DNA from: Nanohaloarchaea archaeon B1-Br10_U2g1
Lineage (GTDB): Archaea; Nanohalarchaeota; Nanosalinia; Nanosalinales; Nanosalinaceae
NCBI GenBank assembly: GCA_001563875.1
Contig: LKMN01000018.1
Coordinates: 1 to 16,195 of the forward strand
DNA length: 16,195 nucleotides
Direction: 5' to 3'
Part shown: positions 179-16,195 of the stretch, one piece after another
How positions within the stretch are numbered: position 1 is the first letter of the stretch
Layout of the letters: every line of letters begins with the position of its first letter
The notes under the pieces: generated by a model
The model's database searches: none
The model's input: only the letters and a program-made list of their open reading frames with translations
What the model was told of the DNA's origin: nothing
Position numbers and translations under genes: made by a program

Positions 179-225
179 ACCATTCAAACTGTGTTTAGGC
201 TTCCAAAAATCTTGGGGTCAGACAA

Positions 226-234
226 TTTTTTAAA
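226..234 (+). promoter_or_regulatory. Putative TATA box for the gene at 257
   Basis: TTTTTTAAA lies 23-31 nt upstream of ATG 257, the spacing expected for a leaderless archaeal transcript. Confidence 0.45.
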
Positions 235-256
235 CCGTCTAAGGCAAAAAGGATTC

Positions 257-544
257 ATGTTTTCAAAACTTAAAATACCGGTTTTAATTGGTTTAATCTT
301 TTATGCAGTAGCTTTTTTAATAGTAAGTAGTTTAGGTTATAATTCTTTTTCTTTTACAGTTATTGCTTACCTTTACGTTGTTCTATCAGTCGTTTTAGCC
401 GTTAAGTATGAGGTTAGAGGAAGCAGTGTTCCTTCATCTCTCAAAAATATAGCTGTGATTGTTGATGAGGAAGAGAAACGTATCAAGAATCTATTCACAG
501 GAGAGAGGTTTGAAATAAAAGGAGAGGTTGAGAGGGTTCAGTAG
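257..544 (+). CDS. Small hypothetical membrane protein (95 aa, about 2 TM helices plus a short soluble tail)
   Basis: The track ORF 104..544 is re-started at MFSKLK (257) because its N-terminal extension overlaps the zinc-finger gene and a TATA-like box precedes 257. Two hydrophobic stretches: IPVLIGLIFYAVAFLIVSSL and FTVIAYLYVVLSVVLAV. Confidence 0.65.
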   Translation: MFSKLKIPVLIGLIFYAVAFLIVSSLGYNSFSFTVIAYLYVVLSVVLAVKYEVRGSSVPSSLKNIAVIVDEEEKRIKNLFTGERFEIKGEVERVQ

Positions 545-1395: not shown

Positions 1396-1579
1396 TGTAA
1401 CTCTCAGTTTTGAAGGCTTATTTATAAAATTTTACAGTGAAAAATCAATACAAGAACACTTGAAAGACATAATAAATTCTCAATTTAGATTGAAAATTTA
1501 TAATATCTATAAAAAACCTCAAAAAAGCAAGTAAATACAATTTGTAAGTTTTTAGAGTTGATATCTTCTACTAAATATT

Positions 1580-2770
1580 TTACAAATGTACCTCCCCTGA
1601 GAAGAATATTATCGTCGGCACCAGGAGAACCGCCATACAGACCCGCCTGTTAGAGGTTAGAACCGCGGCCAGACCTACAAAAGAGGAAACAAACAAGACC
1701 ATTAAACCTCTAAAACCGGTTAGATAAAACGTTATAATTACTAAAACTCCTATAACAGTTAAAAGCACCTTAGAATAGTCAAAACGTTTTATAACCGATA
1801 CATATACTCTTGCTATATTCAAAGCTAGTAACACCGATAAGCCTGTGGCGAAAAGCGATGTACCCATTAAGAAGAAAACTTCATGCCGAGAGATACTGGA
1901 TACAGCCTGTAAAGCCACAGAGGCGCCTGAACGCGCTCTTTCTATAACCAGTATCGCTAGAAACGAGATTATTATATCCGTAGTATTAACACCGCCCATA
2001 CCTGCAAGAAACTCTCTTTTAGAGTTACCGGATATGGGCGCTATAAAAGAAGTTGATGCCGCCGCACCAAGTCCCGGAAATATACCCGCGGTAAGACCAG
2101 CCAGAAAACCTATGACTCCTCCTTTTAAGGACTTGTCTTTTGTAATTCTTGCCGGTTTCTGTCCGGGTATACTTGCTCTTTCACTTAACGAAAGCAGGAC
2201 TGTGGGCACAGCGAAAAGTCCAGCAAAAATTGGAACCAGAATATACTGTCTGTTAACTGTTGTAGTGAATGACAGAGCTCCTAGAGTCCCTGCAAGAGCT
2301 GCTACTGTGAAAGATGCTTTTAGATCTCCTGAGTCGAATACTAGTACAAGTAGAAAGAATAGTAGAAGATACTCCATGAACCCTTCAAGAACCATATAGA
2401 CCGGTTCAATCGTTAGATAGAGTATGGGAAGCATTAACACTACAAGTACGGTTGACCACATACCTCCTATAACCGTGTAATAGAATCCTTCTATGCCTTT
2501 TCCGTTAGAAGTCATCTCCAGCCCAGGGCTTGTAGAGAGTGCCGACTCTCCCTCAGGAGCTCCAAGGAACATTGCAGGAAGAAAGTCGTGAAAAGTGTGC
2601 GCCACCGAAAGACCGGAGATAAATGATAAATAATTAACAAAAGTTACGTCAAGAAAAAAGTAAAACGGTAATGAACCAAATATAACAGTATTAGGGTGTA
2701 TTCCCGGAGTTAGACCAGTAAATACTCCTGTTAACACACCAATAAGAACTAAAAACACAATTTCTATCAT
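1580..2770 (-). CDS. TctA-family / DUF112 archaeal integral membrane protein (tripartite tricarboxylate transporter permease family), about 396 aa
   Basis: Motifs TGLTPGIHPN, HTFHDFLPAMFLGAP, GIFPGLG and RARSGA, and polytopic hydrophobicity. Start moved to MIEIVF (2770) because the track extension overlaps nac. Confidence 0.85.
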   Translation of the reverse strand: MIEIVFLVLIGVLTGVFTGLTPGIHPNTVIFGSLPFYFFLDVTFVNYLSFISGLSVAHTFHDFLPAMFLGAPEGESALSTSPGLEMTSNGKGIEGFYYTVIGGMWSTVLVVLMLPILYLTIEPVYMVLEGFMEYLLLFFLLVLVFDSGDLKASFTVAALAGTLGALSFTTTVNRQYILVPIFAGLFAVPTVLLSLSERASIPGQKPARITKDKSLKGGVIGFLAGLTAGIFPGLGAAASTSFIAPISGNSKREFLAGMGGVNTTDIIISFLAILVIERARSGASVALQAVSSISRHEVFFLMGTSLFATGLSVLLALNIARVYVSVIKRFDYSKVLLTVIGVLVIITFYLTGFRGLMVLFVSSFVGLAAVLTSNRRVCMAVLLVPTIIFFSGEVHL

Positions 2771-2792
2771 AGAATAATGACAAGGATCACGG

Positions 2793-2802
2793 ATATAAAA
2801 AA
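2793..2802. promoter_or_regulatory. Putative shared (bidirectional) TATA element between the TctA-like gene and nac
   Basis: ATATAAAAAA on + is 21-30 nt before nac ATG 2823. The same bases read TTTTTTATAT on -, 23-32 nt before ATG 2770. The gap is only 52 bp. Confidence 0.55.
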
Positions 2803-2822
2803 CAGGGCCTAACTGGAACAAC

Positions 2823-3137
2823 ATGTTCGGCGGCGGAAAAGATATGGCGAAGATGATGAAGCAGATGGGAATGGATATGGAAGAGCTTGACGCAGAGAAA
2901 GTTGAAGTCCATCTGTCAGATGAGAAAAAACTTGTTTTCTCCAAACCAGAGATCTCAAAGATAGAAGTACAGGGACAAGAAGTCTTCCAGCTACAAGGAA
3001 ACTACTCAGAAGTTGAAGACGTAAGCTCTGAAGATATTGAACTAGTGATGGAGAAAACGGATTGTTCAGAGAGCGAAGCCAAGGAAGCCCTGAAGAACTC
3101 TGAAGATGTTGCGGAAGCAATAATGAATCTTCAGTAA
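2823..3137 (+). CDS. nac: Archaeal nascent polypeptide-associated complex protein (NAC)
   Basis: N-terminal MMKQMGMDMEEL-AEKV NAC signature, central beta region (V-GQEVFQLQG) and C-terminal UBA-like EDIELVMEKT...AKEALK...DVAEAIMNL. Confidence 0.95.
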   Translation: MFGGGKDMAKMMKQMGMDMEELDAEKVEVHLSDEKKLVFSKPEISKIEVQGQEVFQLQGNYSEVEDVSSEDIELVMEKTDCSESEAKEALKNSEDVAEAIMNLQ

Positions 3138-3208
3138 ATCTACTACTTCTTATTTAATTTTACAGAACTTAGACAACGAAAAATCATTCTTACTTATTTG
3201 AGATACTT

Positions 3209-4825
3209 CTAGGTCTGATCCCCTTCGTAATCCATATACTCTAAGAACTTAGCGTAAGCCGGCCTTGTAATCATTATACCTACTAGAACGCCTATTATCG
3301 TGGTTATTGCGAACCCTCTTACAGCCTGTAGTGCGAAGGCGGACGGATCAAACTGCATCATAAAGACCGACGCTGTTACTGTAAACGCTCCGAGACCCAG
3401 GTACATCCTGCTTGCTCTTCTGCTGTACAGAGCGTATCCTATAAGTCCTAGTCCTGCCGCACCTATTGCAAGATTGGATGCAGCCGGATTAATCAACGGC
3501 GCCATCGCCCCTATAGTGGTAGCGGCTGCCGTAAATATCACGAAGAAAGCTCTCTTCAAACGTCTCTTCCAGCTTCTTATCTTATCTTTACCTCTCTCGT
3601 CCGTAATAATAATCTGGTCATCTACACCGGTTCCTACCGCCGCAATTATACCTGCTATCGCCGCCAAGTCAAGCGTTATCAGCGTCGAGAAGAACGCTCC
3701 TAACAGGATGAATACTTCTGAAGATCCTGTAAATACTATAGGAACTACTAGTCTTGGATCACCGTATCTTAGATAGATTATACCTCCCACAGCTATAAGA
3801 GAGGAAACTATTGAGAAAAGCGCAGCCGTCATAAACCGATCTCCAAGTGCTGCCGATATAGTAGATATGCTCTCGACCTGGATACCTGCCGGCAGACTTC
3901 CCGACTGAAGTATTGCCTGTAGTTCTTCCATGTTCTGTTGTGTCTCCGCCTCGGTCTCTCCTCCTCCCGTTATTGAGGGCTGCTGTATTATCTGTTGTGC
4001 GAAAACTCCTGCCATCCTAAGCTCGTTCTGCATCTCACCGTCGACATAAAGTCTCAGGTATGCGTATTCGTTGCTGTCAGGCATCATCAGATGTGATTCA
4101 TCGCCTACTCCTGCCACCTCATAGTTCTGGGCAACTCTCTGTACGTTTTCCGCTGATTCTCGTGTAATTATTACAGGGAACTGGAACTCGAAACCTTCAC
4201 CGCTCGGTCCTACAGCCCCCTCTCCGGTAAGCACCTGTTCTACATCTGCTCCAGAGTAGGCTACAGCTTCTAGATGAGCTGTGTCCTCAGTATCGTTTAT
4301 GTAACGGAATGTTGTACCTTCTATCTCCCAATCGTCTCCAGGCTGGTATGTCGAGCCGTTTACCGAGATTTCTCCGTTTTCGCGTGTAAAGGTATGTGTC
4401 TCGAAAAGCGTGTACTCCAGCTCGTCTTCAACTTCTAGCGGCATTCTTGCTTCGAACTGTCCTTCCTGCTCTATAAGCTCTCTTATCTGTTCTTGGTCTG
4501 TTTCAGCCACCTCAACCTGCACCATATACTCTCCGGCCAGCTCGACAGTTCTTATCGATGCCTCAGTTAGACCGAAAGCCGATATTCTCTGGTCTAGTAC
4601 GTTTGATACTTGGTTAGCAAGTTCCTGACTGTTCTCTTCAGAATCTATAGAGACAAGTACATTAGTTCCTCCTTGGAGGTCTAAACCTTGGTTTATCCCT
4701 GTCTCTATCTGCCACTGTCCGTCGTCGTCTTGGACGTACTGCGGGCTTAGAAGAATTAAAGATATTAAAAGCGAAAATGCTAGCACCCACATCCTCCATT
4801 CTTTAAGTAGCGGCTTTACCTCCAT
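3209..4825 (-). CDS. secD: Protein translocase subunit SecD (archaeal)
   Basis: GLDLQGG after TM1, large extracellular domain ending LQSGSLP, DLAAIAGIIAAVGTGVDDQIII, RGFAITTIIG and ITRPAY. Lies directly downstream of secF. Confidence 0.95.
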   Translation of the reverse strand: MEVKPLLKEWRMWVLAFSLLISLILLSPQYVQDDDGQWQIETGINQGLDLQGGTNVLVSIDSEENSQELANQVSNVLDQRISAFGLTEASIRTVELAGEYMVQVEVAETDQEQIRELIEQEGQFEARMPLEVEDELEYTLFETHTFTRENGEISVNGSTYQPGDDWEIEGTTFRYINDTEDTAHLEAVAYSGADVEQVLTGEGAVGPSGEGFEFQFPVIITRESAENVQRVAQNYEVAGVGDESHLMMPDSNEYAYLRLYVDGEMQNELRMAGVFAQQIIQQPSITGGGETEAETQQNMEELQAILQSGSLPAGIQVESISTISAALGDRFMTAALFSIVSSLIAVGGIIYLRYGDPRLVVPIVFTGSSEVFILLGAFFSTLITLDLAAIAGIIAAVGTGVDDQIIITDERGKDKIRSWKRRLKRAFFVIFTAAATTIGAMAPLINPAASNLAIGAAGLGLIGYALYSRRASRMYLGLGAFTVTASVFMMQFDPSAFALQAVRGFAITTIIGVLVGIMITRPAYAKFLEYMDYEGDQT

Positions 4826-5751
4826 GTTAACATACCTCCTAGCTCAGAAGCTGCTTCTGAAGCTGTTTCCATATCTCCGTCAGCATACTTCTTTAGTACA
4901 ACTGCGTTTCCAAGCCATGTTAAAGGCATGTCTGCGAGCAGTCCTATAACCATTACTGCTGCGATATTTGAAAGCTCTGAAGGCCCCGCTATCATCCATG
5001 AAACTGCGTAAAGTAGTGTGAAGCCGGCTATTCCGCCAGAGCTCATTGTTAGTCCTGTCTTGGTTGCGCTCCAGACACGGTCTCTTAGGCTTCCACGTCT
5101 CTGTTTGAGAACTCTAGTAGATAAGACAATATCCGTATCAACAGAATAACCTATAAGCATCAGTAAAGCTGCTAAAGAACCTAATGTTAGAGGTATATCT
5201 AGTAAAGCCATACCAGCCATCGCAAATGTTATGTCTCCAGCTATAGCAAATATTACGGCAAAAGAAGGCACTATATCTCTGAAAGCTATGAAAACAACAG
5301 TACTCATTATTATGAAGGCGATTCCGAAAGCTAGTATTGCCTGTCTAAAGAACTCTTCAGAGACCGTCGCATCTATAGTGCTTAGGCTCTGCAGCTCAAC
5401 ACCAAAACCTTCGTCTTCAAGCACCTCTACAGCTTCTCCCTCAGTAAGCTCAGGGGGAGGAGCCCTCAACAATAAATATGTTTCATCGGTAGTAACCTGT
5501 TCTAATGCCTCTACATCTTCTCTGCCAGCATTAGCGAAAGCAGATTCTATTTCTTGTGTCGAAAACTCTTCATCTATAGAAAACTGCATCTCTGTACCGC
5601 CTGTGAAGTCAAGACCCAACGTTAAAACCTGGCCAGTTAAAATATAGTTCCCTCCTAGAACTGTTAACGCAAGGACGACCATCAAGACAGGTATTATGAA
5701 GTAGTCCTCCATATTCCTGTAGATTCTATCGAAATATTTCTCTAGACTCAC
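4816..5751 (-). CDS. secF: Protein translocase subunit SecF (archaeal); start probably GTG 5751 (track start 5787)
   Basis: LGLDFTGGT, LAALLMLIGYSVDTDIVLSTRVLK and IGLLAD...TWLGNA motifs. TTTAAAAG on - lies about 27-34 nt upstream of GTG 5751. The exact start is uncertain. Confidence 0.93.
   Translation of the reverse strand: MSLEKYFDRIYRNMEDYFIIPVLMVVLALTVLGGNYILTGQVLTLGLDFTGGTEMQFSIDEEFSTQEIESAFANAGREDVEALEQVTTDETYLLLRAPPPELTEGEAVEVLEDEGFGVELQSLSTIDATVSEEFFRQAILAFGIAFIIMSTVVFIAFRDIVPSFAVIFAIAGDITFAMAGMALLDIPLTLGSLAALLMLIGYSVDTDIVLSTRVLKQRRGSLRDRVWSATKTGLTMSSGGIAGFTLLYAVSWMIAGPSELSNIAAVMVIGLLADMPLTWLGNAVVLKKYADGDMETASEAASELGGMLTWR
4834..4840 (-). promoter_or_regulatory. Shine-Dalgarno site for secD inside the secF 3' end
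   Basis: AGGAGGT on - strand, 8 nt before secD ATG (4825). secF and secD overlap by 10 nt, suggesting translational coupling. Confidence 0.7.
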
Positions 5752-5845
5752 AGTTATTATAGAAGTAGCTAAGAATCTTTTAAACACTCCGGGAGGTTGC
5801 TTGAGTAGAGAATAAAAAAGCTCCAGCCTTAACAGTTAAACACTG

Positions 5846-8536
5846 ATGAGTATAGATCCGGATGATATTAATTTTAGATCAGTAAAGACCTTCCTAAACA
5901 GACACAGAATGTTTCTGCTGGCTTCTATCATAGCTCTAGCCGCTGTCTACATCCGGTTCAGCCCGGCTGAAAACATGGATTACCTACAAGCAATGGACTC
6001 ATATATCATATACCGTTTCAGCCAGCATATCGCCTTAGACTGGAGCTTCCCGGCCTTAGACTTTTTTAGGTACTTCCCTTACGCTTTCCCTACTTATGCT
6101 GAAAACATGGGATCTTTCTATATTCCTGCTATACTTTACTGGTTAGGTCCTTTCCTATTCCTTGACTACCTCACTTGGGCTCAGTTATTCCCGCCTTTGA
6201 TGGGAGGACTATCCGTTATCGCAATCTACTTTATCGGTAAAGAGGCATTTGACCCTTTAACAGGTGTTTCCGCAGCCTTCTTCCTTGCAACAATCGCAGG
6301 GGTCATGCATAGATCCGGTGCAGGATTCTTCCAGAAAGACCCTATATCTGCAGCATTCATGCTAGTATCTATCTACTTCTTCATACGTGCCTGGAAACGC
6401 GACGACTGGTACTCCGGAATAGGTGCCGGTGCCACCTTAGGAGTCGCAACAATATCTTGGGGAGGCTCAAGCATGCTTTGGCTCCTCTACGCTCTAACAG
6501 TAGGCGTGATGCTCTGGATAAATGAAGATATACGGAAACTTGTAACCGCCTACACACCAACAATACTAATAGGTGCTTTCCTAGCAGCCTCACTGAACCA
6601 CGACAGGTTCTGGCTTACAGATCTAGACTTCTTAGCTAACCTAGCCGTACTTCTCCTACTATGGAGCCGTTATCTGCTTGAAGAGCTTGAGCTAGTTAAA
6701 GAAAACTATCTTCCATATTATATACCGTCAGTCTCTATTTTTGGGCTTGTAATGGCAGCTTTATCACCTTTGTACTCCCAGACTCTTGCAAATATGTTCA
6801 TAAGGATGGTCAGACGCGTTACAAGACAACAGAGCGACAGCGACGTTATTGGAGGGACAGTGGCAGAGAACACTCCTGTTACGTTAGGAGAACTTTCCTC
6901 ACAGCTTGGATCTGTAGGTGTTAGTCAGGTCCAGATGTTTGTAAGTGATCCTTATGCCAGCATTATATCACCTTTCACAGCAATAGGAGGCTTAATAAGC
7001 AATATCAACGGTCCTTGGCCTCTAGCATTTATAGGTATCGTTTTCCTTTCAACGAGCATCCTTTTCATGGTTTTAAGGAAGCTGGAGTTTGTCGAGGAAA
7101 CCATAAATGAAAGAATATTTTACCGAGTGCTCGCAGCGGTCCTAGTAGTTTGGATCGGATCTTTCTCACTAGTATTTGACGACCCTACCCCTGGAGCTAC
7201 CTTAATTGCTGTAGGACCTGCAGTATTTGCATTAGCAGGTTCTCTAGGAATATTATATAGCTTAGAAGAGTTTAGAGACATAGATATTGAGATAAAGTGG
7301 TACCAGATAATCCTAGTTTTATGGGCAGTAAGCAACATACTGGCTGCTTCAGCACAGTCTAGACTTGTCTTTTTAGCGTCCTATCCTACGGCATTCATGG
7401 CAGGATACATGTTTGCTAAAGTGGTAAGAAGAATCAGAGATCTTGGCCCAGAGTCTGTCCGGTACTTGTCAGTAGGTTCAGGAGTTCTGCTAATAGATAT
7501 TACTCTTATCGTAGGCCTCCTAATCTCCGGTATAGGGATAATCCCTGCAGTTGTTGCCGTGGCTATACTTAACGGTCTCGGCTATATTATAGCAGGAGGG
7601 ATCGAATCCCGCCATCATCTGAACAGCAACTATCTAAGTACAGGCCTTCTAGCCATCATGGTTATTGTGACCATCCTAGTAAACTTCGGATCAGGATACT
7701 CGGCAGCAAACAGTCTGCAGGAGTCTCCTGACGAACTATGGATGGAAAATCTAGATTATCTGAACGAAGAGGCTGATGAAGACGCAGTAGTTCTCTCGTG
7801 GTGGGACTACGGATACCATTTCCAGTCGGTAGGCAGAACAGCAACTGTGGCAGACGGAGGTAACTTAGGATACTACACAGATGAGGATAGAATTCCTTAT
7901 ACCATAGCAGATTTCTTCACATCGGAGAACCCTGAAGAGCATGAAGAGCTTTTCAAGAAACATTCTGTGGACTACCTGGTCCTAGACGAGACTATGCTAG
8001 GTAAGTACTCTGCCGTAAGCCAGATCGCTGAAAGGGATAATGAGAACTTCCGTTCAATGATACAGCTTGAAAGCCCAAGTAATATACAGGAAGGAGTAAC
8101 AGAGATAGATAATAGAACCATGGTAGAGTTCTCAGGCCAGGGAATAAACGTTTATACTCCAGTAGATAATAGTGAAGGCTCTGCAGAGATAACTTCGGCT
8201 CCTATATTCGAAAGCCCTGAATTCAGAGGAGAGATAGACTGCGTTCTAACAGATGACGGTGTGCAGGAGTTTGACGGAGATGGAATCGAGCTTGATGGTT
8301 TCGGAGAAGTATGTGCAGCACAGAACCCTTACTTCAATGTAGACAGGGCTTTAGCTTTTGGACAGCAAGGGTTCGGAATGCCGGCCAGACTCGTACTAGT
8401 ACCGAAAGATATCAAGGATCATACCATGGTACGGCTATATCTTATGGATGGCTACGATATTGATTTCCTCGAGAGCGCTCCTGACGCCTCTAACGACTAC
8501 ATCAAAACCTGGGAAGTTGACTATGACGAACTTTAA
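5846..8536 (+). CDS. aglB: Oligosaccharyltransferase AglB (STT3 family)
   Basis: WWDYG motif, EL1 Asp (MDSY), TIXE-type TVAE motif, conserved Arg (QSRL), RTATVADG, DK-like LDETMLGK, and a multi-TM N-terminal region. Confidence 0.96.
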   Translation: MSIDPDDINFRSVKTFLNRHRMFLLASIIALAAVYIRFSPAENMDYLQAMDSYIIYRFSQHIALDWSFPALDFFRYFPYAFPTYAENMGSFYIPAILYWLGPFLFLDYLTWAQLFPPLMGGLSVIAIYFIGKEAFDPLTGVSAAFFLATIAGVMHRSGAGFFQKDPISAAFMLVSIYFFIRAWKRDDWYSGIGAGATLGVATISWGGSSMLWLLYALTVGVMLWINEDIRKLVTAYTPTILIGAFLAASLNHDRFWLTDLDFLANLAVLLLLWSRYLLEELELVKENYLPYYIPSVSIFGLVMAALSPLYSQTLANMFIRMVRRVTRQQSDSDVIGGTVAENTPVTLGELSSQLGSVGVSQVQMFVSDPYASIISPFTAIGGLISNINGPWPLAFIGIVFLSTSILFMVLRKLEFVEETINERIFYRVLAAVLVVWIGSFSLVFDDPTPGATLIAVGPAVFALAGSLGILYSLEEFRDIDIEIKWYQIILVLWAVSNILAASAQSRLVFLASYPTAFMAGYMFAKVVRRIRDLGPESVRYLSVGSGVLLIDITLIVGLLISGIGIIPAVVAVAILNGLGYIIAGGIESRHHLNSNYLSTGLLAIMVIVTILVNFGSGYSAANSLQESPDELWMENLDYLNEEADEDAVVLSWWDYGYHFQSVGRTATVADGGNLGYYTDEDRIPYTIADFFTSENPEEHEELFKKHSVDYLVLDETMLGKYSAVSQIAERDNENFRSMIQLESPSNIQEGVTEIDNRTMVEFSGQGINVYTPVDNSEGSAEITSAPIFESPEFRGEIDCVLTDDGVQEFDGDGIELDGFGEVCAAQNPYFNVDRALAFGQQGFGMPARLVLVPKDIKDHTMVRLYLMDGYDIDFLESAPDASNDYIKTWEVDYDEL

Positions 8537-8539
8537 AAC

Positions 8540-9604
8540 ATGGAGTTTATAGCCCTATCAGCTTTTCTAGGCTTTCTTGTAACTCTTGTAGGTACTCCTT
8601 TAGCTGAAAAGTATCTCGCCGCTTCAGGAATATATGGAAAAGATCAGAACAAGACCGGAAAACCTAAGATACCTACTTCAGGCGGACTCATAGTTTTAAT
8701 GGGTTTTTTAATATCAATAACCTTCTATGCCGGAGCCACATCAATCTTCACAGATACAATCGTAGACAAAGAGCTTTTGTTCGCCGCGCTTGCTTCAACA
8801 ATACTTATAGCTCTTATAGGTCTTGTAGATGACATACATATTGAGTCTTTAGCTTCTTCAGAGGATATTGAGATAGTTACAGGAGACAGTATACTCCACC
8901 AAAAAGCCGAGCTGATCCTTGGTTCTGGTGAAGCCGGAGAGGACCGTAAAGGTCTTTCACAGTCAGTCAAGATGTTGATGGTTCTGCCTGCAGCCTTTCC
9001 TTTGATCGCTGCCGGAGCAGGATCTTGGACGATGGTTCTTCCTGCTCTCGGAGAAGTTCAATGGGGTCTTATATACCCGCTGATACTGCTTCCCGTAGGA
9101 CTACTGTTTGTTTCAAATGTTGTGAACATGCTTGCAGGCACAAACGGTCTATCATCAGGTCTAAGCTTAGTAACGGCTTTAGGTCTTGGTATTTTCGGTA
9201 TTCTAAACGGACAGCTGGAGGCAGCTATGATTGCGTTTGGTCTTGCAGGAGCTCTAACAGGCTTCATCTGCTATAACTGGCCTCCCGCATCTATACTTCC
9301 AGGAGACTCTTTAACCTATCTCTGTGGCGCAGCTCTTTTCTCTACAATGGTAATCGGCGATATGGAAAAGTTCGGAGTCTTTGTGTTCGTCTTATGGTTT
9401 ATAGAGTTTTTCTTGAAGCTTAGAAGTCGTTTTAACGCCCATTCATGGGGTAAGCCAGATGGAGGGAGTCTCAAACCTCTTTATGATAAAAACTACTCTT
9501 TAACACATCCTTTGATGCGTAGAGGATTTACTGAGAGCCAGATAACAGCTACTCTTATCTTGGTTCAGATTTTTGTAGTTTTATTAGGCTTGATTTTACT
9601 TTAG
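8540..9604 (+). CDS. aglH: UDP-GlcNAc:dolichyl-phosphate GlcNAc-1-phosphate transferase (AglH/GPT/MraY, glycosyl transferase family 4)
   Basis: GKDQNK..KPKIPTSGG, IGLVDD, NVVNMLAGTNGL, YNWPPASILPGDS and EFFLKLR are GPT/DPAGT1-like motifs. Starts 3 nt after the aglB stop. The symbol is assigned by family resemblance. Confidence 0.85.
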   Translation: MEFIALSAFLGFLVTLVGTPLAEKYLAASGIYGKDQNKTGKPKIPTSGGLIVLMGFLISITFYAGATSIFTDTIVDKELLFAALASTILIALIGLVDDIHIESLASSEDIEIVTGDSILHQKAELILGSGEAGEDRKGLSQSVKMLMVLPAAFPLIAAGAGSWTMVLPALGEVQWGLIYPLILLPVGLLFVSNVVNMLAGTNGLSSGLSLVTALGLGIFGILNGQLEAAMIAFGLAGALTGFICYNWPPASILPGDSLTYLCGAALFSTMVIGDMEKFGVFVFVLWFIEFFLKLRSRFNAHSWGKPDGGSLKPLYDKNYSLTHPLMRRGFTESQITATLILVQIFVVLLGLILL

Positions 9605-9614
9605 AATTTTTAAC
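9598..9614 (+). repeat. 17-bp direct repeat, copy 1 (ACTTTAGAATTTTTAAC)
   Basis: 16/17 identical to 13180..13196. Spans the convergent stop codons of aglH and the cupin gene. Confidence 0.6.
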
Positions 9615-9972
9615 GTTTCTCTTCGTACGGATCTTCTATCCTGTTTATGTCCTCAGGTCTGTAAGGGAAGGATATCTCAAGCAGTTCAGCTACCTCGCCA
9701 CCTATATTCTGTATCTGATGTTTTTCTCCCGATCTAACGACAATTGCATTCCCCTTTTCCAGGTTCTTGATGTCTCCTTCCTTTCTTATGGATACATCTC
9801 CCTTCTCTAGATAAAGTATATCTGCCTGCTTGTCGTGGAAAGAGTAGGAGGTCATCTCTTCTGCATCTATAACCAGTTTACGAACTCCTAACATACCAGG
9901 TTTGTCTCCGATATCTACCTGAGTTATCATAACCTGTTCTTCGTACCCCCATGGCTTCTCAATCCTTGACAT
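9610..9972 (-). CDS. Cupin protein, mannose-6-phosphate isomerase type II C-terminal-like
   Basis: N-terminal EKPWG, S..FH (MTSYSFHDK), KHQIQN, LLEIS and C-terminal EDINRIEDPY, typical of standalone PMI-type-II cupins. Confidence 0.8.
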   Translation of the reverse strand: MSRIEKPWGYEEQVMITQVDIGDKPGMLGVRKLVIDAEEMTSYSFHDKQADILYLEKGDVSIRKEGDIKNLEKGNAIVVRSGEKHQIQNIGGEVAELLEISFPYRPEDINRIEDPYEEKR

Positions 9973-10023
9973 TGACGTTCCCTCTATACGGTTTAATGAT
10001 AAGCCAATCTTCTTATCTCTATC

Positions 10024-10953
10024 TTAGCGATAGTATCTAACAGTTTCTTTCAGTCCTTCTTTGAAGCTGTATCCAGGTCTGTAACCCATCAAGTCTTCGG
10101 CTCGAGAATAATCTGCCCTAGTAGTTTCCACATATTTATCTCTAGGGTTTTCAACATGCTTAGGCTCTATTTGGGTTTCAAGCACTTTGTTTAGCTTATT
10201 AACTGCTTCATTGAAAGTTATATCTTTACCAGTACCTATATTGAAGTGTTCACCATCCAGTTTCTCATCCTGTTCAGCGGCCAATATATTTGCTTTAACT
10301 ATATCTTTCACATAGGTGAAGTCTCTAGACTGTTCTCCCTCTCCCCATATAACAGGTCTCTCGCCCTTTTTCATCTTCCATAGAAACTGTGTGACTACAT
10401 TAGCATACTTTCCTTTTGACTTCTCTCTAGGACCGTAGACAGAGAAATATCTCAGGCCTGTAGTCTGTAAAAGATTATTGTAGGAGTATGCTTCGGCATA
10501 TCGTTCTCGCGACATCTTTGAAGCAGTATAGAGATTGGTAGGTATCTCTCCTGAGTCCTCTCTATGAGGAGGTTTCACGCTTCCATACATGGAGCTGGTG
10601 GACGCATAAACCACTTTTTCAACCTCTTCCTCTATGGCTGCTTCACAGGTGTTTACGAACCCTGCTACGTTAACATTCACGCCTTCAACAGGATTTTCTT
10701 TGTGCATCGGTGAAGAAGATCTAGCAGCCTGATGAAAAACTGTGTCACAGTCTCTTACAGCCTCTTTTACAGTTTCTTTATCAGTCACAGAACCCTTTAT
10801 GAACTCTATATCGTTTTTTACGTCTTCAAGATTAGATCTTGATCCTAGATATAGGTCATCAAGGACTTTGACCTCTTTGTCTTTAGAAACAAGTTCTTTA
10901 ACAATATTAGATCCTATAAAACCTGCTCCTCCTGTTACCAGTACCTTCTCCAT
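10024..10953 (-). CDS. NAD-dependent NDP-sugar epimerase/dehydratase (extended SDR, GalE/WbpP-like)
   Basis: TGGAGFIG Rossmann motif, HQAA, YASTSS, YTASK (YxxxK), LRYFSVYGP and GEQSRDFTYV. Confidence 0.92.
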   Translation of the reverse strand: MEKVLVTGGAGFIGSNIVKELVSKDKEVKVLDDLYLGSRSNLEDVKNDIEFIKGSVTDKETVKEAVRDCDTVFHQAARSSSPMHKENPVEGVNVNVAGFVNTCEAAIEEEVEKVVYASTSSMYGSVKPPHREDSGEIPTNLYTASKMSRERYAEAYSYNNLLQTTGLRYFSVYGPREKSKGKYANVVTQFLWKMKKGERPVIWGEGEQSRDFTYVKDIVKANILAAEQDEKLDGEHFNIGTGKDITFNEAVNKLNKVLETQIEPKHVENPRDKYVETTRADYSRAEDLMGYRPGYSFKEGLKETVRYYR

Positions 10954-10979
10954 ATTTTAACCTTTCCCATACATTCTTT

Positions 10980-11828
10980 TTATTCTAAGCTGATTTTCGT
11001 TGGTAGAGCTTCCATAGCCCCTTTCGAAGTTGTAGATACTGCTGCCGCCTCTACAGCCTTTTGGAGTGCTTTGGTCTTTCCTGCTTCTCTAAAAGCCAGA
11101 TAAGCTCCTGTCAGACAGTCTCCGGCGCCCGTCGTATCAACCACTTCTACGTTAGGAGGTTGGAACCGAGTCTCTTCTCCGCCGTGAACAAGCTCTGCAC
11201 CCTCTTCACCTTTTGTTATAACCAGTTCCTTTGGCTTCTCAACAACGTTTTTATCAAAGAATCTCAGTTCCTCTTCTGCAGCTATGAGGATATCTGTCTC
11301 TTCAATTATCTCGTTTAAAACCTGTCTGTAGCTCTCATCCAGAAGCTCTTCTCTTATATTAGGGTCAAAGCTTACTTTGGCATCAGTCTTTTTTAGGAAG
11401 TTGAGGATGTTGTCTGCAGAACTTTTATCAGTCCATGGAAGAGATCCTAGATGTACAATATCGTCTTTGCTGGGTTCTATATCTAGCTGTCTATTCCTTA
11501 TGTTTTCATCCGCATCTCTGTAAAAGCTGAAATGAGGTTTAGCCTCCTCGTCAAGCGCGACAAAAGCCAGTGTTGTTTTCCCTTCTCTTCCTATCTTATC
11601 TGTACCTACGTTTTCTTCTTTGAGTCTTTCAGCTAGAAAGTCTCCGAATTCGTCCTCCCCAACGGTTGCAACCATTTCCACATCCGCGCCAAGTCTAGAT
11701 GCTGCAACAGCTACGTTTGCGGGTGCTCCTCCAGCCCTCTTCAAGAATCCACAGTTTTCAGTTAAATCTTTTTCCTCCCTTCCTATCATGTCGACTAGAA
11801 GCTCTCCTATACAGTAAATCTTGGTCAT
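10980..11828 (-). CDS. PfkB-family carbohydrate kinase, fructokinase-like
   Basis: GELLVD, AGGAPANVA, VGEDEFG, SFDPNIR, ITKGEEG and VDTTGAGD signatures. Confidence 0.92.
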   Translation of the reverse strand: MTKIYCIGELLVDMIGREEKDLTENCGFLKRAGGAPANVAVAASRLGADVEMVATVGEDEFGDFLAERLKEENVGTDKIGREGKTTLAFVALDEEAKPHFSFYRDADENIRNRQLDIEPSKDDIVHLGSLPWTDKSSADNILNFLKKTDAKVSFDPNIREELLDESYRQVLNEIIEETDILIAAEEELRFFDKNVVEKPKELVITKGEEGAELVHGGEETRFQPPNVEVVDTTGAGDCLTGAYLAFREAGKTKALQKAVEAAAVSTTSKGAMEALPTKISLE

Positions 11829-12700
11829 CTGTAGGCCTCCACCGTCCTGTACTCTTCTGTTATATCTTCATATATATCAGCTATCTGCTCTGTGAAAGGA
11901 CCTTCTTGAACTATTTCAGGCTCTTCGAGTTCACTCAGGCCGTAATCCTGTCTACCAGACTCAATATATCTGAATGTCTCCTCTCTTGCCTCTTCAATCT
12001 CTTTACCGTTTAGAAGTTCTCTGGCAGCTATTGCTGAAGCTGTCCTTCCCCAGCCTTCAGAGTCGTCTGGGAAGTAGAGTGTAGAGTACTTTCTTGCTCT
12101 GTCTCTTCCAAATGCTTCCTCAGAGTTTTCCATTATCTCTTTATCATTTGAACTGTTTCCAAAGGCTATAGAGGTTACTTCTTCAGGTTTGTAGCCTTTT
12201 TCTTGCTCTAGAACCTTTAGCTTTTTCTGGCCTGAACAGTATCTTCCGACCTCTAGTCCTGATCCATTCTGTTTGATTCTGGCTCCGTACACCTCTGGTG
12301 CATCATCTTGAAGCAGCTGTTGAAGTGCGTGAAGCGGTGGCTCTTCAAGCCCTGCGGTTACAACTGTTATAGGTTGACCTAAATATCTGTTCAGATGTAG
12401 GAATCCATCGCCGTAGTCCTGTAGGAACGGTATCTGGGCCTCTTTAGCTATTCTATCCAATTCGTCTATATCTTCTGCTTCTTGAGAAACCGTGTATGCT
12501 AGAGAGTCCGCTGTGTTGAGCTCCTGTTTGTCAAATGTATCGACCATCTGTTCGAACTGTTCTACGTCTTCGAACCCTAGCTTGTAGCTTTCGGGATGTT
12601 CAGCAATATTTAGTCCTGTATCTCTTGTGGTTACCGTTTCGCAGTGGTCGGCCCAGATCTCTACCTGGTTTTCCGGGCCCTGACCGTCATCTAATGCCAT
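11825..12700 (-). CDS. HAD-superfamily hydrolase-like protein (subfamily IB / phosphoserine phosphatase-like) with non-canonical motifs
   Basis: Motif I-like WADHCET, motif II VVTAG, motif III Lys (QKKL) and motif IV-like FGNSSND. Overlaps pfkB by ATGA. Confidence 0.6.
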   Translation of the reverse strand: MALDDGQGPENQVEIWADHCETVTTRDTGLNIAEHPESYKLGFEDVEQFEQMVDTFDKQELNTADSLAYTVSQEAEDIDELDRIAKEAQIPFLQDYGDGFLHLNRYLGQPITVVTAGLEEPPLHALQQLLQDDAPEVYGARIKQNGSGLEVGRYCSGQKKLKVLEQEKGYKPEEVTSIAFGNSSNDKEIMENSEEAFGRDRARKYSTLYFPDDSEGWGRTASAIAARELLNGKEIEEAREETFRYIESGRQDYGLSELEEPEIVQEGPFTEQIADIYEDITEEYRTVEAYR

Positions 12701-12719
12701 AGTATTACGATGTAATACT
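12701..12719. promoter_or_regulatory. Perfect inverted repeat AGTATTAC-GAT-GTAATACT, candidate repressor operator
   Basis: Exact 8-bp arms with a 3-bp spacer. It abuts the HAD start codon (12700) and lies between that codon and the TATA-like box at 12725..12732. Confidence 0.7.
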
Positions 12720-12724
12720 TCTAG

Positions 12725-12732
12725 TTTTTAAA
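12725..12732 (-). promoter_or_regulatory. Putative TATA box of the HAD-pfkB transcript
   Basis: TTTAAAAA on - strand, 25-32 nt upstream of ATG 12700. Confidence 0.55.
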
Positions 12733-12784
12733 GGTTGTACTACAGCCCTTACGTTTATTACTTGAACAGATTCAAACCAGTAGT

Positions 12785-13186
12785 ATGAACAGACGTTTCC
12801 TAAAAGACACTTTAGCACGCGAGTCCCGAGCCTATGGATTCACTATTGCCTTCTGGGGATCAGGAGCCATGATACTAAACCAGCTAGGGGTACCTACAGC
12901 TCTAGAGATAATCACATTCGGAATAGGATCAGTTCTTGGATTCGGCTTACTAACGCTTTACGTATACCGTGACGCTCTGAATCCGGTTAAAGATGAAGAC
13001 GTTAAGATAGTGGCTCTAAGTATGATTCATTACATTGCTGCAGTTATACCTATAGTAGGAGCTTACTTCCTGGCCAGTCTTCCTGGGTTGTGGGCATATC
13101 TAACCACAGGAATGTTAACCTCTATAGGCTACAACCTTGGTATGGTTATAGAAGAGCGTTTAGCTGAAAAACTAGTCGAACTTTAG
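12785..13186 (+). CDS. Hypothetical membrane protein (133 aa, about 4 TM)
   Basis: Four hydrophobic segments and an ES.AYGFT...WGSGA motif. TTTATTA at 12754..12760 is at TATA spacing. Confidence 0.8.
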   Translation: MNRRFLKDTLARESRAYGFTIAFWGSGAMILNQLGVPTALEIITFGIGSVLGFGLLTLYVYRDALNPVKDEDVKIVALSMIHYIAAVIPIVGAYFLASLPGLWAYLTTGMLTSIGYNLGMVIEERLAEKLVEL

Positions 13187-13196
13187 AATCTTTAAC
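13180..13196 (+). repeat. 17-bp direct repeat, copy 2 (ACTTTAGAATCTTTAAC)
   Basis: 16/17 identical to 9598..9614. Spans the convergent stop codons of the membrane protein and RHH-NTase genes. Confidence 0.6.
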
Positions 13197-13935
13197 CTAC
13201 TTCCAGCCATTTGCCGCCGTATATATAGCCGTAGAGCTCAGATGTAGCTGCAAGACTCTCAAAAACAGACTCAAGATTCGAGCCGTTTAAACGGGAAAAA
13301 ATTGACGGAGAGACAATATAGGTACCTGAATTTATCAGTCTTGAAGGCTCCTCTCCTTTACTTGGCTTCTCCTCGAAACCCAGTATCTCTCTTCCTTTTA
13401 AACGGGCTACACCGTAGTTGGAAGGGTTTTCTACAGTTGTCAGCGCCATAGTGGCTACAGCATCTTCATCCTCATGTACCTTCAACATATCCCTTATATC
13501 TACATCCGCAGCCACATGGCCGTTCAGAACCACAAGATCCTCATTAACCTTGCTCTCAATCTTTGAGAGTGCTGAGGCAGTACCTTCCGGTTCATCCTCA
13601 AAAACATACTCCAGAGCTATTCCTCGGTACTCCGAACCGAACTGGTTCTCTATCTCACGGTTTCTGCCCACCAAGAGTATAGTTCTGTTTATTCCCTGAG
13701 ATCTTAGATGGTCAAGTATATGGCTCAGAACCGGTTTTCCTTCCACCAATTCCAGAGTCTTGGATTCGGCTCCACCACATAGAACTGCTGCTGTACCGAC
13801 ACCTTTCCTCTTAAAATGGCTCTCAACTATCTGCTCAACCATGGAGGAGCGGTTCAAACCTTTATCCTCCGCCTCCAGATCAACTTTCTCAACAAGCTCT
13901 CTCTCCAAGGTTAGAGAGATCCTTTTCTTAGACAT
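13192..13935 (-). CDS. Ribbon-helix-helix (CopG/NikR-like) domain fused to a degenerate sugar-phosphate nucleotidyltransferase domain
   Basis: aa 1-42 KRISLTLERELVEKVD..AEDKGLNRSSMVEQIV is an RHH pattern. The rest has NTP_transferase motifs GKPVL.H, EPEGTA, YGV, FEEKP and INSGTY, but the GxGTR..P motif is missing. Confidence 0.85.
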   Translation of the reverse strand: MSKKRISLTLERELVEKVDLEAEDKGLNRSSMVEQIVESHFKRKGVGTAAVLCGGAESKTLELVEGKPVLSHILDHLRSQGINRTILLVGRNREIENQFGSEYRGIALEYVFEDEPEGTASALSKIESKVNEDLVVLNGHVAADVDIRDMLKVHEDEDAVATMALTTVENPSNYGVARLKGREILGFEEKPSKGEEPSRLINSGTYIVSPSIFSRLNGSNLESVFESLAATSELYGYIYGGKWLEVG

Positions 13936-14024
13936 TAATCGAAATATAGTCTTACCAATTTTTTAACTCTAACAGCCTCCTAAAATAAGAAGACTCCTGA
14001 CTCAAAGAAACGTTGTAAGTCGTC

Positions 14025-14834
14025 ATGACGAAGATTGTTGACGGAAATAGAATAGCTGAAGAAGTCGAGAAACAGCTTGAAACAGGTATCAAACCGTTGC
14101 TCGGGATAATACTTGTTGGAGACAGAAAGACTTCGGAAGTGTTCGTGGAGAAGAAGGTTGAAGCCTGTGAGAGAAACGGTTACAGATCACGAGTAAAAAC
14201 CTTTCCCGAGGACGTGGAACAAGAAGCTCTAAAAGAAGCTATAGAAGACTGGAACAGAGACACGGAAGTAAACGGTATTCTAGTGCAGCTCCCTCTACCC
14301 AAACATATAGAAGAAAACCAACTGTTCAAAAATCTGAAACCTGCGAAAGATGTTGACGGCTTAACACCTGAAAATCTTGGAAAAATTCTTAGAGGCTGTG
14401 AAGACGTGGTTCCTGCAGCTGTCTCAGCTATAATAGAGATAATAGAACAGAAAGGCATCAGGATAGAGACTGAAGACGTCGTAATCATAAACAACAGCTC
14501 TTTGATCGGAAAACCATTATCAATGGCTCTTACAAATAGAGGTGCAACAGTCAGCTTGTGTCATAAAAAAACTGAGAATTTAGAGAAGTATACCCAGGAC
14601 GCAGATATGATAATAACTGCTACCGGAGAACCCGGTCTGATAGAAGACGAAATGCTTTCTGAAAATGCTTTGGTCATTGATGCAAGCTACGGATTTATCG
14701 ACGGGAGCCTTGTATCAGATACCAAGGATCTAGAGGAAGATGTAGATTTAACTCCTGTGCCCGGAGGAGTAGGTCCCGTAACAGTAGCTAAAACACTTGA
14801 AAACCTGGTCAAATGTTACCGTAAACAGGTTTAA
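14025..14834 (+). CDS. folD: Methylenetetrahydrofolate dehydrogenase/cyclohydrolase FolD
   Basis: IVDG..IA, KKVEAC, VNGILVQLPLP, KDVDG, ATVSLCH, ADMIITATG and TPVPGGVGPVT. Confidence 0.95.
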   Translation: MTKIVDGNRIAEEVEKQLETGIKPLLGIILVGDRKTSEVFVEKKVEACERNGYRSRVKTFPEDVEQEALKEAIEDWNRDTEVNGILVQLPLPKHIEENQLFKNLKPAKDVDGLTPENLGKILRGCEDVVPAAVSAIIEIIEQKGIRIETEDVVIINNSSLIGKPLSMALTNRGATVSLCHKKTENLEKYTQDADMIITATGEPGLIEDEMLSENALVIDASYGFIDGSLVSDTKDLEEDVDLTPVPGGVGPVTVAKTLENLVKCYRKQV

Positions 14835-15496
14835 TCCCTTCTTATCTCTATATCAACAAAGTATTTCTGTCCGTAAAGCTCAAAGTACGCATTTTTACGT
14901 GGCGGAAAACTAAGCGCTCTCAACCGGTCCAGAAACTGTCCGGCGGTTACTTCCTCGTTCAGATCGATTCTGCGAAGCTCTTCTAGCTCTCTACTGTAAT
15001 GCTTGTTTCCCTTACCTGTCTGTGGTTTAGGAGACATACCTTCTTTGATATCTTTCCAACTCTCCTTGAAAAGCTGGACTCCTTCACTGGTTAAACGCTG
15101 GTAAAGAGTTTTACCGGCATCCTCAGGAGTTACCCTTACCTCTTTCTTATCTATTATAGGGCCTTCATCTATCTCTTCAGTCATGTAATGCAGTGTTACA
15201 CCGGCCGGTGTCTCCTCAACCATACTCCAGATATATGGATGCGCTCCTTTGTTATAAGGAAGATATGATGGATGAAGGTTGACTATGCCTTGGTCAGGGA
15301 CTTCAATTATCTCCTTGGGAACTTTATGTTCAAATCCGGCTGAGACAACCAAGTCCGGCTCCAGTTTTTTAACAAGTTCTAGCTGCTCTTTCTCGGTTAG
15401 AAGCGCTTTAACCTCTACATCGTCTCTCTGGTTAAGCCATTCGTAGATCTCTTCACCTGCATCGTTCAGACCAAGGAAAACAGTTTTCAGAACCAT
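14831..15496 (-). CDS. 10-formyl-THF-dependent formyltransferase, NDP-amino-sugar N-formyltransferase type; start probably 15496 (track 15523)
   Basis: VNLHPSYLPYNKG.HP, GVTLHYM...IDEGPII (Asn/His/Asp triad), and a short C-terminus RLRALSFPP.KNAYF resembling VioF-type sugar formyltransferases. Too short to be Fmt. Confidence 0.85.
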   Translation of the reverse strand: MVLKTVFLGLNDAGEEIYEWLNQRDDVEVKALLTEKEQLELVKKLEPDLVVSAGFEHKVPKEIIEVPDQGIVNLHPSYLPYNKGAHPYIWSMVEETPAGVTLHYMTEEIDEGPIIDKKEVRVTPEDAGKTLYQRLTSEGVQLFKESWKDIKEGMSPKPQTGKGNKHYSRELEELRRIDLNEEVTAGQFLDRLRALSFPPRKNAYFELYGQKYFVDIEIRRD

Positions 15497-15575
15497 AAAT
15501 GTTTCTAGCCGGTTAAACTTCAATTAACTACCGGATCCGAAAAACTATTATCTTCTTAACTACAACCGGTTTTAC

Positions 15576-16195
15576 GTGTCTAGTAATAAACCTGTTATAA
15601 TATCTTTTGAGGGCTGTGAAGGTGCCGGAAAATCCACTGCTACCGAGATAGCTTCAACTATTTTAAGAGATAAAGGTGCGTCCGTCGAGACAGTAACTCT
15701 TGGTATATACAGATACAGTTTTCCTCTAAACCTTTACCGTTCCTTCAAGAGAATCTTCAGTTCGAAGAAAAGTAACAGTAACTCTTCCGGAGGAAGCTCA
15801 AGCTCCAAATATAGGAAGAGAACCACAGTAAGAAGTCTTGTGCTTCTAGCTAATATGAGATGGCGCCTGTTCAAAACAGAAAGAAGTAAACCCGAATTTA
15901 TTGTTACGGACCGGCACTACGCCGATATCTTCAAACAGTCAAGACCAGACTTTCTAACATTAAAAGCTGTGAAACGTCTCGATAGCTCAGACGAACTAGT
16001 GCTGCTTGAAACAGATCCAGAAACGGTTAAAGAGAGAAGAGATAGCAACCCTGAACTAGTTGAAAAACGGTTTGAACAGCTTGAAAAGTACCTGGAAAAG
16101 ACCGGTATAGAGTATACAAAGATAAGTTCTGAGGATTACAAGGAAACACAGGACAGCATCAAGAAAATCGTTGAAAAGTATTCGGACCGGTTTAA
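15576..16195 (+). CDS. Thymidylate-kinase-like P-loop nucleotide kinase (3' partial; not in ORF track)
   Basis: Manual translation from GTG 15576: MSSNKPVIISFEGCEGAGKSTA...EFIVTDRHYAD...VLLETDPETVKERR..., open for 206 codons to the window edge. The P-loop, the DR motif and the lid-proximal motif are TMK-fold features. Confidence 0.8.
   Translation, partial: MSSNKPVIISFEGCEGAGKSTATEIASTILRDKGASVETVTLGIYRYSFPLNLYRSFKRIFSSKKSNSNSSGGSSSSKYRKRTTVRSLVLLANMRWRLFKTERSKPEFIVTDRHYADIFKQSRPDFLTLKAVKRLDSSDELVLLETDPETVKERRDSNPELVEKRFEQLEKYLEKTGIEYTKISSEDYKETQDSIKKIVEKYSDRF

Follow-up and report, generated by a model that had tools for sequence, protein, structure and literature searches.

Positions 13192-13935 on the reverse strand of a 16,195-nucleotide stretch of DNA from Nanohaloarchaea archaeon B1-Br10_U2g1 (contig LKMN01000018.1, positions 1 to 16,195; hereafter the window, which is contig C11 of the source genome) encode a 247-aa protein in which an N-terminal ribbon-helix-helix (RHH) domain is fused to a degenerate NTP_transferase domain. 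Judged from comparisons of sequences and promoters, this fusion protein is probably a repressor that governs the supply of sugars and nucleotide-sugars and senses a ligand through its catalytically dead domain. Its targets in the source genome, a Nanohaloarchaeal genome of 710 kb that is 96.75% complete, would be the adjacent operon of HAD-like, PfkB, epimerase and cupin genes and probably a ROK glucokinase gene. A preliminary description, made from the window alone, had proposed a regulator that reads the nucleotide-sugar pool, an interpretation that is partly supported by the comparisons presented here.

Domain architecture and collapse of the catalytic loop

Both domains named in the preliminary description, an N-terminal RHH and an NTP_transferase domain joined to it, were matched by Pfam. 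The RHH domain comprises residues 1-44 (13804-13935, reverse strand), with the strand KKRISLTL followed by helices at residues 12-25 and 29-42, and RHH_1 matched residues 5-39 (E 3.9e-5, 23.9 bits against a cut-off of 20.5). Conservation was assessed in 120 close homologues (57-72% identity, 230-252 aa, names from Nanohaloarchaea). The strand residues K3, R5 and S7 were found in 118 of these and T9 in 119, which is every row with a residue at the position, and N28, R29 and S30 were found in all 120.

The predicted sensor, an NTP_transferase-like domain, occupies residues 46-247 (13195-13800, reverse strand) down to the stop codon at 13192-13194, ends at WLEVG and carries neither the C-terminal helix nor the left-handed beta-helix domain. 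Its Pfam match spanned residues 59-220, corresponding to profile positions 23-191 of 245 (E 1e-22); profile positions 1-22 remained unmatched, so that the glycine-rich signature at the start of the profile was not covered. This signature has collapsed to CGGAESK (residues 53-59; 13759-13779, reverse strand), a 9-residue deletion that takes out the catalytic Arg. An alignment of the fusion protein with 149 representatives and both paralogues from the source genome placed CGGAESKTLELVEGKP of the fusion protein against AAGRGTRMKPLTEDTPKP...GKP of the canonical paralogue: from GG to GKP the loop counts 11 residues instead of the usual 20, the Arg column is gapped, and K59 is aligned with the signature Lys. 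The 11-residue short loop was present in all 120 close homologues. Furthermore, the metal-binding Asp of the NGD motif is replaced by His140 (NGH; 13516-13518, reverse strand), a position occupied by His in 112, Asn in 7 and Asp in 1 of the homologues, and WxDxG reads WLEVG in the last residues of the protein, with Glu at position 245 (Asp in 66 and Glu in 49 of 120).

The motifs EPEGTA, YGV, FEEKP and INSGTY are present in the fusion protein, and G118, N138, G139, G175, P191, N202, G204 and Y206 were invariant among the 120 homologues. The collapsed loop, the NGH, the terminal WLEVG and the retained ligand-binding motifs had all been read from the single sequence, and each held up in the alignment. 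The dead-loop RHH/NTP_transferase architecture is thus a fixed trait of the family, and the predicted catalytic parts are lost while the residues of the base and sugar pockets are kept under strong conservation.

An AlphaFold2 monomer model built from 85 sequences had a mean pLDDT (predicted local distance difference test) of 95.7 and showed two N-terminal helices (pLDDT 90-98) followed by a nucleotidyltransferase fold; residues 1-11 had no partner strand in this monomer. The best Foldseek matches were GDP-mannose pyrophosphorylases (7x8k, 7d74) and GMPPB (template modelling score 0.71-0.73, E 3e-19), with alignments spanning ~220 residues, which is about as long as the enzyme-like domain. NCBIfam enzyme models fell far below their cut-offs, the best among the 25 listed of 35 matched being Arch_glmU with 99.2 bits against 292.1.

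Two further PF00483 genes were found in the source genome, adjoining each other on contig C8. The paralogue at C8:15760-16956 has a canonical loop and a hexapeptide domain, and the presence of this intact-loop paralogue suggests that the enzyme function is covered elsewhere in the genome. The adjoining gene (C8:16963-18066; locus L001 1066-2169, reverse strand) encodes a 367-aa nucleotidyltransferase paralogue with a hexapeptide-repeat tail, in which the signature loop is degenerate (without GxGTR and without the Lys) and NGD and WIDIG are retained; it may be a GMPPA-like inactive partner of the neighbouring canonical enzyme.

A candidate operator between TATA box and start codon

One nucleotide from the ATG of the HAD-like gene lies the candidate operator GTATTAC-GAT-GTAATAC (12702-12718), made of two 7-bp quasi-palindromes 10 bp apart. 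The TATA box of the operon promoter, CCTTTAAAAA (12725-12734, reverse strand), stands 6 nt upstream of it. On the coding strand the order is therefore CCTTTAAAAA, 6 nt, the 17-mer, 1 nt and ATG, so that the site fills the gap between the TATA box and a leaderless start.

Searches were run with the pattern GTAWTAC-N3-GTAWTAC and, as a control, the reversed pattern. The site at 12702-12718 was the sole mismatch-free match in the window, which held 5 matches at up to 3 mismatches against 0.61 expected, and the sole copy with 0-1 mismatches in the 710-kb genome. At up to 2 mismatches the genome held 12 sites against 3 for the control, and a crude scan at 3 mismatches placed 27 of 94 sites near any open reading frame (ORF) start, against 23 of 63 for the control, which gave no useful contrast. 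An operator-like word without promoter context, the perfect palindrome GGAATAC-GTC-GTATTCC, was seen at C4:279-295 inside an 86-aa ORF.

In most related loci, a 16-17-mer, mostly GTAATAC-ATC-GTAATAC, occupies the equivalent position. A site with up to 2 mismatches was found 750-2500 nt downstream of the fusion-gene start in 22 of 26 Nanohaloarchaeal loci and was missing from L009, L015, L024 and L025; L021 and L026, whose gene copies are cut by contig ends, were excluded from this count. Among 37 distinct oriented sites of the relatives, the free spacer was A in 26, T in 31 and C in 28, position by position, and 28 of the 37 stood 8-10 nt after a TATA-like word. Across the phylum, 65 of 70 genomes carried at least one site, with a total of 268 sites against 17 for the reversed control. 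Two stretches had been put forward earlier as DNA probes: the palindrome at 12701-12719 proved to be a phylum-wide promoter element, whereas 13936-13970, ahead of the fusion gene, holds one half-site-like word.

Genes behind the sites

Five other Nanohaloarchaeal genomes held 4, 6, 6, 4 and 4 sites at up to 1 mismatch, compared with 1, 0, 0, 0 and 0 for the control. Directly behind these sites, Pfam identified phosphoglycerate kinase (PGK) in 4 genomes, ROK glucokinase in 3 genomes and in the source genome, a DeoC/LacD-family aldolase in 3 genomes and a canonical nucleotidyltransferase of ~320 aa (NTP_transferase) in 4 genomes; a NUDIX protein followed a site in 1 genome. The leading gene of the operon next to the fusion gene also belongs to this set, as the site precedes it in most related loci. 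The second-best site of the source genome, GTAATAC-TCT-GTATTGT (C8:9965-9981), abuts the ATG of the ROK glucokinase gene on C8.

Genomes G006 and G007 of the sister lineages contained 5 and 7 sites against 0 for the control, placed ahead of fructose-bisphosphate (FBP) aldolase/phosphatase (FBPase_3, twice), phosphoenolpyruvate (PEP) carboxykinase (PEPCK, once) and the fusion gene itself. At G006 C1:72329-72355 and at G007 C1:94892-94918 and C13:2133-2159, three half-site words follow each other with a 10-bp period as overlapping 17-mers, a longer operator than the Nanohaloarchaeal one; these triple-word sites stand before the FBP aldolase/phosphatase and PEP carboxykinase genes. A dense TAATAC/GTATTAC array was also seen before a 315-aa nucleotidyltransferase-like ORF in a Parvarchaeotal genome (L131; G015, C5:157368-157384 and flanks), and in L133 (G017) a site lies 41 nt before an epimerase/dehydratase gene.

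The preliminary description had the regulator controlling the surrounding glycosylation genes. What stands of this is the adjacent sugar operon, joined by kinase, glycolysis/gluconeogenesis and nucleotide-sugar genes behind sites; the glycosyltransferases do not belong to the set, as no operator site was found ahead of the AglB/STT3 or GT4 genes in the window.

Association of the fusion gene with the site

With the pattern as defined on Nanohaloarchaea only, fusion genes outside this group were searched for sites in their own promoters (-70 to -10, up to 2 mismatches). Such sites were found in 8 of 30 fusion loci, representing ~5 independent lineages. The background of 315,577 bp held 6 sites (binomial P 2e-17), and among 554 other ORF starts 3 had one. 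G008 (a Woesearchaeote), G009 (Burarchaeum) and G019 each contain a single site in the genome, and it lies in the fusion-gene promoter. Moreover, the half-site word varied by lineage together with the RHH strand: RVSLTL went with GTAWTAC, KIAISI with GTATGAC in 2-3 copies, the Aenigmatarchaeotal KISLTL with three GTAnnAy words and the Nanoarchaeial RITITL with GTAATAC...TCATAC, and two paralogues in one Burarchaeum genome (L034, L114) each had their own version of the word. Four of the 5 site-less genomes (G021, G022, G026, G056) were also without the gene.

Several observations weigh against the fusion protein as the reader of this element. The covariation of word and RHH strand is qualitative only, and the relaxed pattern GTANNA-N4-GTANNA, which gave a broader count (15 of the 30 own promoters, 6 of 553 other windows), was devised with the data already in view. 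The fusion gene's own promoter in the window (13949-13967, reverse strand) contains no full operator; it consists of a TATA-like GTTAAAAAATT (13957-13967) and a single half-site-like GTAAGAC (13949-13955), so that autoregulation is not evident in the source genome. The PGK and aldolase promoters of the source genome are likewise without a site, and, as no source-genome orthologue of the 320-aa enzyme was found either, the local regulon would be small. Sites also occurred in 13 of 17 genomes without a full-length match to the fusion protein. Four of these were looked at, the other nine being 68-81% complete: G065 and G029 have a partial gene copy at a contig end, the syntenic contig of G050 starts inside the operon, and in G066 the gene is truly absent. 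This last genome, a single contig that is 99% complete, has the membrane-protein gene followed directly by the formyltransferase gene, with the fusion gene absent from its syntenic place, and a profile search of it returned unfused enzymes as the only family matches and no match to the RHH head better than E 0.12. Even so, 5 sites with 1 mismatch (control 0) are present in G066, before aldolase, PGK and 320-aa nucleotidyltransferase genes. G068, of the same genus, carries the gene in two pieces, and a recent loss in G066 is therefore possible.

A TATA-like word, TTAAAA or ATTAAA, stands ~22-30 nt before the fusion ATG in nearly all of the 28 loci shown, which points to leaderless transcripts as the rule in these genomes. 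A NikR-like 128-aa protein of G066 was considered as a substitute reader of the sites and rejected, its RHH-head match reaching E 0.12 only. This protein (L162 1495-1881, forward strand; C1:12177-12563) has the RHH strand IISLSL and a C-terminal domain, and its gene is divergent from that of a 247-aa multi-pass membrane protein which, by eye, has the look of a ZIP-type metal transporter.

The alternative that survives best, though I consider it unlikely, is that the element is the operator of another regulator, for example the TrmB-family protein encoded at C16:20028-20843, and that the fusion gene is one of its sugar-related targets or its product binds other DNA. The C16 protein matches both TrmB and Regulator_TrmB above their cut-offs, and two reports on other archaea (PMC4706686; PMC2710871) describe TrmB-family proteins, TrmBL1 among them, as sugar-sensing regulators of glycolysis, gluconeogenesis and sugar genes that act through a conserved promoter motif. 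In these respects they resemble the proposed system, from which they differ by a winged-helix head and another sensor domain, and the two kinds of gene coexist in the source genome; neither a TrmB winged-helix nor a Regulator_TrmB domain was found in the fusion protein by Pfam. The site itself suits a winged-helix dimer such as TrmB, because the 17-mer as a whole comes close to a palindrome and has its centres 10 bp apart, and such a dimer could read it equally well. Regulator_TrmB matches were found in 5 of 5 outgroup genomes tested, and G066 has kept the sites and a TrmB-like gene in the absence of the RHH fusion gene. In contrast, a TrmB-like gene is present in 69 of the 70 phylum genomes including G056 and the likewise site-less G021, G022 and G026, and the promoter of the TrmB-like gene in the source genome carries no site. 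Reading by TrmB also sits badly with the three genomes whose sole site is the fusion gene's own promoter (G008, G009, G019), with the two paralogues in one genome that have different half-site words, and with the three-word arrays at a 10-bp period, which are more typical of RHH arrays.

Loop-intact relatives and the question of residual activity

A family search gave 13,317 matches at E up to 0.001 among 1.84 billion representatives. Of the best 150, 85 had an N-terminal extension of 35-60 residues (46 of them matching RHH_1 at E up to 0.01), 49 had none, and 16 with missing ends or longer extensions were set aside. The signature Arg was present in 11 of the 85 extended rows (Arg and Lys together in 9) and in 46 of the 49 rows without extension (Arg and Lys in the same number), a contrast inflated by the ranking of matches by likeness to a degenerate query. 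Fusions were found in Nanohaloarchaea, Asbonarchaeum, Altiarchaeota, Aenigmatarchaeota, Micrarchaeota, Burarchaeum, Nanoarchaeia, Woesearchaeota and Parvarchaeota, as well as in one Patescibacteria record. The search for architecture and neighbourhoods that had been suggested earlier thus confirmed the RHH/NTP_transferase fusion and its conserved context; this architecture is not a rarity, occurring in hundreds of DPANN clusters.

In the 30 fusion loci from other phyla, whose sequences were read by eye, GGxGTR(L/M)R is intact in about two thirds. That many members have an intact catalytic loop, and that the family is not uniformly inactive, counts against a dead sensor as its general state. 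Resolution was poor in a FastTree built from 139 domain sequences, where 24 of 136 branches were starred and RHH presence required 15 changes; the 9 loop-intact fusions were scattered in it and required 8 changes, and shuffles did as well in 99 of 500 cases. The tree therefore favours neither a single origin nor several for the fusion or for the loss of the loop. Databases name the family 'sugar phosphate nucleotidyltransferase' or 'mannose-1-phosphate guanylyltransferase', and an ESM Atlas homologue (P0070) likewise bears automatic names of the enzyme type.

These names agree with a second alternative, in which the protein would still be a sugar-1-phosphate nucleotidyltransferase with an unusual active site, its RHH domain serving only for autoregulation or tethering, as in the trigger enzyme PutA. 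Intact GGxGTR(L/M)R fusions are common in other DPANN lineages, where some have own-promoter sites (L053/L115), and the window protein retains K59, E189-K190 and the acidic residue 245. I regard this as very unlikely for the window protein: the 9-residue deletion takes away an Arg that 46 of the 49 unfused relatives possess, 119 of the 120 homologues have His or Asn in place of the metal-binding Asp, all listed NCBIfam enzyme models lie far below their cut-offs, and a canonical paralogue exists in the genome.

Slimmer still is the chance that the protein is a GMPPA-like inactive regulatory subunit of a canonical nucleotidyltransferase, with the RHH domain used for oligomerisation instead of DNA reading: the nearest structures include the GMPPA/GMPPB complex, and the fusion gene overlaps the gene of a ~390-aa canonical enzyme in L045, L051, L056 and L059, but the close family shows no variation in the putative base-reading residues K3, R5, S7 and T9 or in the helix-2 cap (N28, R29, S30), a conserved DNA element is linked to the gene, and the canonical enzymes of the source genome are encoded on another contig. 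GMPPA (PDB 7d72) remains an instructive comparison, matched by the fusion protein at E 1.7e-4 (GMPPB at 1e-16). PMC11228364 describes non-catalytic GMPPA as binding GDP-mannose and restraining GMPPB. The two proteins share the fold, a degenerate catalytic signature and a retained product pocket, which GMPPA uses for sensing, as the fusion protein probably does. GMPPA differs in retaining a C-terminal beta-helix domain, in lacking any domain for DNA binding and in acting on a partner enzyme, not on transcription.

Proposed mechanism and comparison with known regulators

RHH proteins bind DNA as dimers that insert a two-stranded sheet into the major groove, and such dimers often line up in arrays. 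The preferred reading of the fusion protein as a dead-enzyme repressor would have each RHH dimer read one 7-bp quasi-palindrome GTAWTAC, and the enzyme-like domains would bridge two dimers onto the two words 10 bp apart. Archaeal regulators bound between TATA box and start site block polymerase recruitment, and the fusion protein, bound between the TATA box and the leaderless start, would block the recruitment of RNA polymerase in this manner. A nucleotide-sugar or sugar-1-phosphate in the dead pocket may set the affinity for DNA, with GDP-mannose-like ligands as first candidates because the nearest structures are GDP-mannose pyrophosphorylases. As all targets feed hexose phosphates or activated sugars, the simplest logic would be end-product feedback with a nucleotide-sugar as co-repressor; induction by substrate is equally possible.

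The closest likeness in layout is NikR, also a one-component regulator with an N-terminal RHH and a C-terminal ligand-binding oligomerisation domain, acting on repeated half-sites in promoters. Its half-site, GTATGA/TCATAC, resembles the words of some fusion lineages. NikR senses nickel through an ACT-like domain, whereas the sensor of the fusion protein has the NTP_transferase fold and a sugar metabolite is the expected ligand; the fusion protein is not a member of the NikR family, as the C-terminal ACT-like, nickel-binding tetramerisation domain is not there. With CopG, Arc and MetJ it shares the DNA-reading module (Pfam RHH_1). In these proteins, several dimers sit on repeated words, under co-repressor control in MetJ, and they differ in having no large enzyme-derived sensor domain. 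In trigger enzymes of the PutA/BirA type, a metabolic enzyme is joined to a DNA-binding domain (RHH in PutA), and transcription thereby follows the metabolite status. Both PutA and BirA remain active enzymes, in contrast to the window protein with its missing catalytic residues; by analogy, the loop-intact members of the family may work as PutA-like trigger enzymes.

It had been stated earlier that no characterised regulator of this architecture was known, and a full-text search, with subscription journals and supplements outside its scope, found none published. I tentatively propose, at slightly less than even confidence, that RHH-nucleotidyltransferase fusions form a DPANN-wide and hitherto undescribed class of one-component regulators. 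Once loop-intact, self-repressing enzymes with a single operator in their own promoter, they would later have become dead-enzyme sensors in Nanohaloarchaea and sister lineages, with a small regulon (glucokinase, PGK, aldolase, FBP aldolase/phosphatase, PEPCK) gating carbon from glucose and C3 compounds into activated cell-surface sugars by end-product feedback.

Neighbouring genes

The putative operon behind the operator spans the window from 12700 down to 9610, all on the reverse strand. Its first gene (11825-12700) encodes a 291-aa HAD-like protein, a weak match below cut-offs, and is overlapped by 4 nt by the gene of a PfkB-family sugar kinase (10980-11828), for which the nearest model, fructokinase, also stayed below its cut-off. 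Then follow an NAD-dependent sugar-nucleotide epimerase/dehydratase (10024-10953; nearest model ADP-heptose 6-epimerase, 187.9 bits against a cut-off of 274.6) and, as the last gene, a cupin (9610-9972) with a likeness, below cut-off, to the C-terminus of mannose-6-phosphate isomerase. A heptose pathway was considered for this operon and rejected: with the epimerase below its cut-off, the PfkB protein nearest to fructokinase and rfaE reaching 56 bits only, the scores are too weak for the operon to be called one.

The gene order is conserved in Nanohaloarchaea. The fusion gene is followed by a convergent gene for a 133-aa membrane protein (12785-13186, forward strand, in the window), a conserved neighbour, and then by the operon, in which the first gene varies and PfkB, epimerase and cupin follow; after the operon come GT4 and AglB on the opposite strand. 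In the window these are an 896-aa AglB/STT3 oligosaccharyltransferase (5846-8536, forward strand) and a GT4 (MraY/AglH-like) phosphosugar transferase (8540-9604, forward strand), which together form the N-glycosylation core of the locus.

Upstream of the fusion gene and divergent from it, the conserved order has either a second epimerase or FolD with a formyltransferase. The window has the latter pair, FolD at 14025-14834 (forward strand) adjoining the formyltransferase at 14831-15523 (reverse strand), and several relatives (L007, L017, L079) have the pair close to the regulator gene as well. For the formyltransferase, the best models were sugar N-formyltransferases (dTDP-4-amino-4,6-dideoxyglucose formyltransferase, 130 bits, below cut-off), along with Pfam N_formyltrans_C; FolD paired with a sugar-formyltransferase-like protein suggests formylated sugars in the glycan. 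Further away, at 538-1395 (reverse strand), lies the gene of an acidic protein of 285 aa, which begins with a signal-like stretch and contains a lamin-tail domain (LTD, E 9e-9); the gene is kept near the locus in several relatives.

Significance for DPANN archaea

Gene regulation is poorly understood in DPANN archaea, whose tiny genomes encode few regulators. If the proposal is correct, these organisms would have an identifiable switch for sugar supply, comprising a defined operator, a predictable regulon of small size and a ligand pocket open to testing, and the fusion protein would provide a clear example of an enzyme fold that has come to serve as a sensor for transcription. The proposal would also correct a systematic misnaming of these proteins as enzymes, which inflates the nucleotide-sugar biosynthetic capacity inferred for symbiotic archaea.

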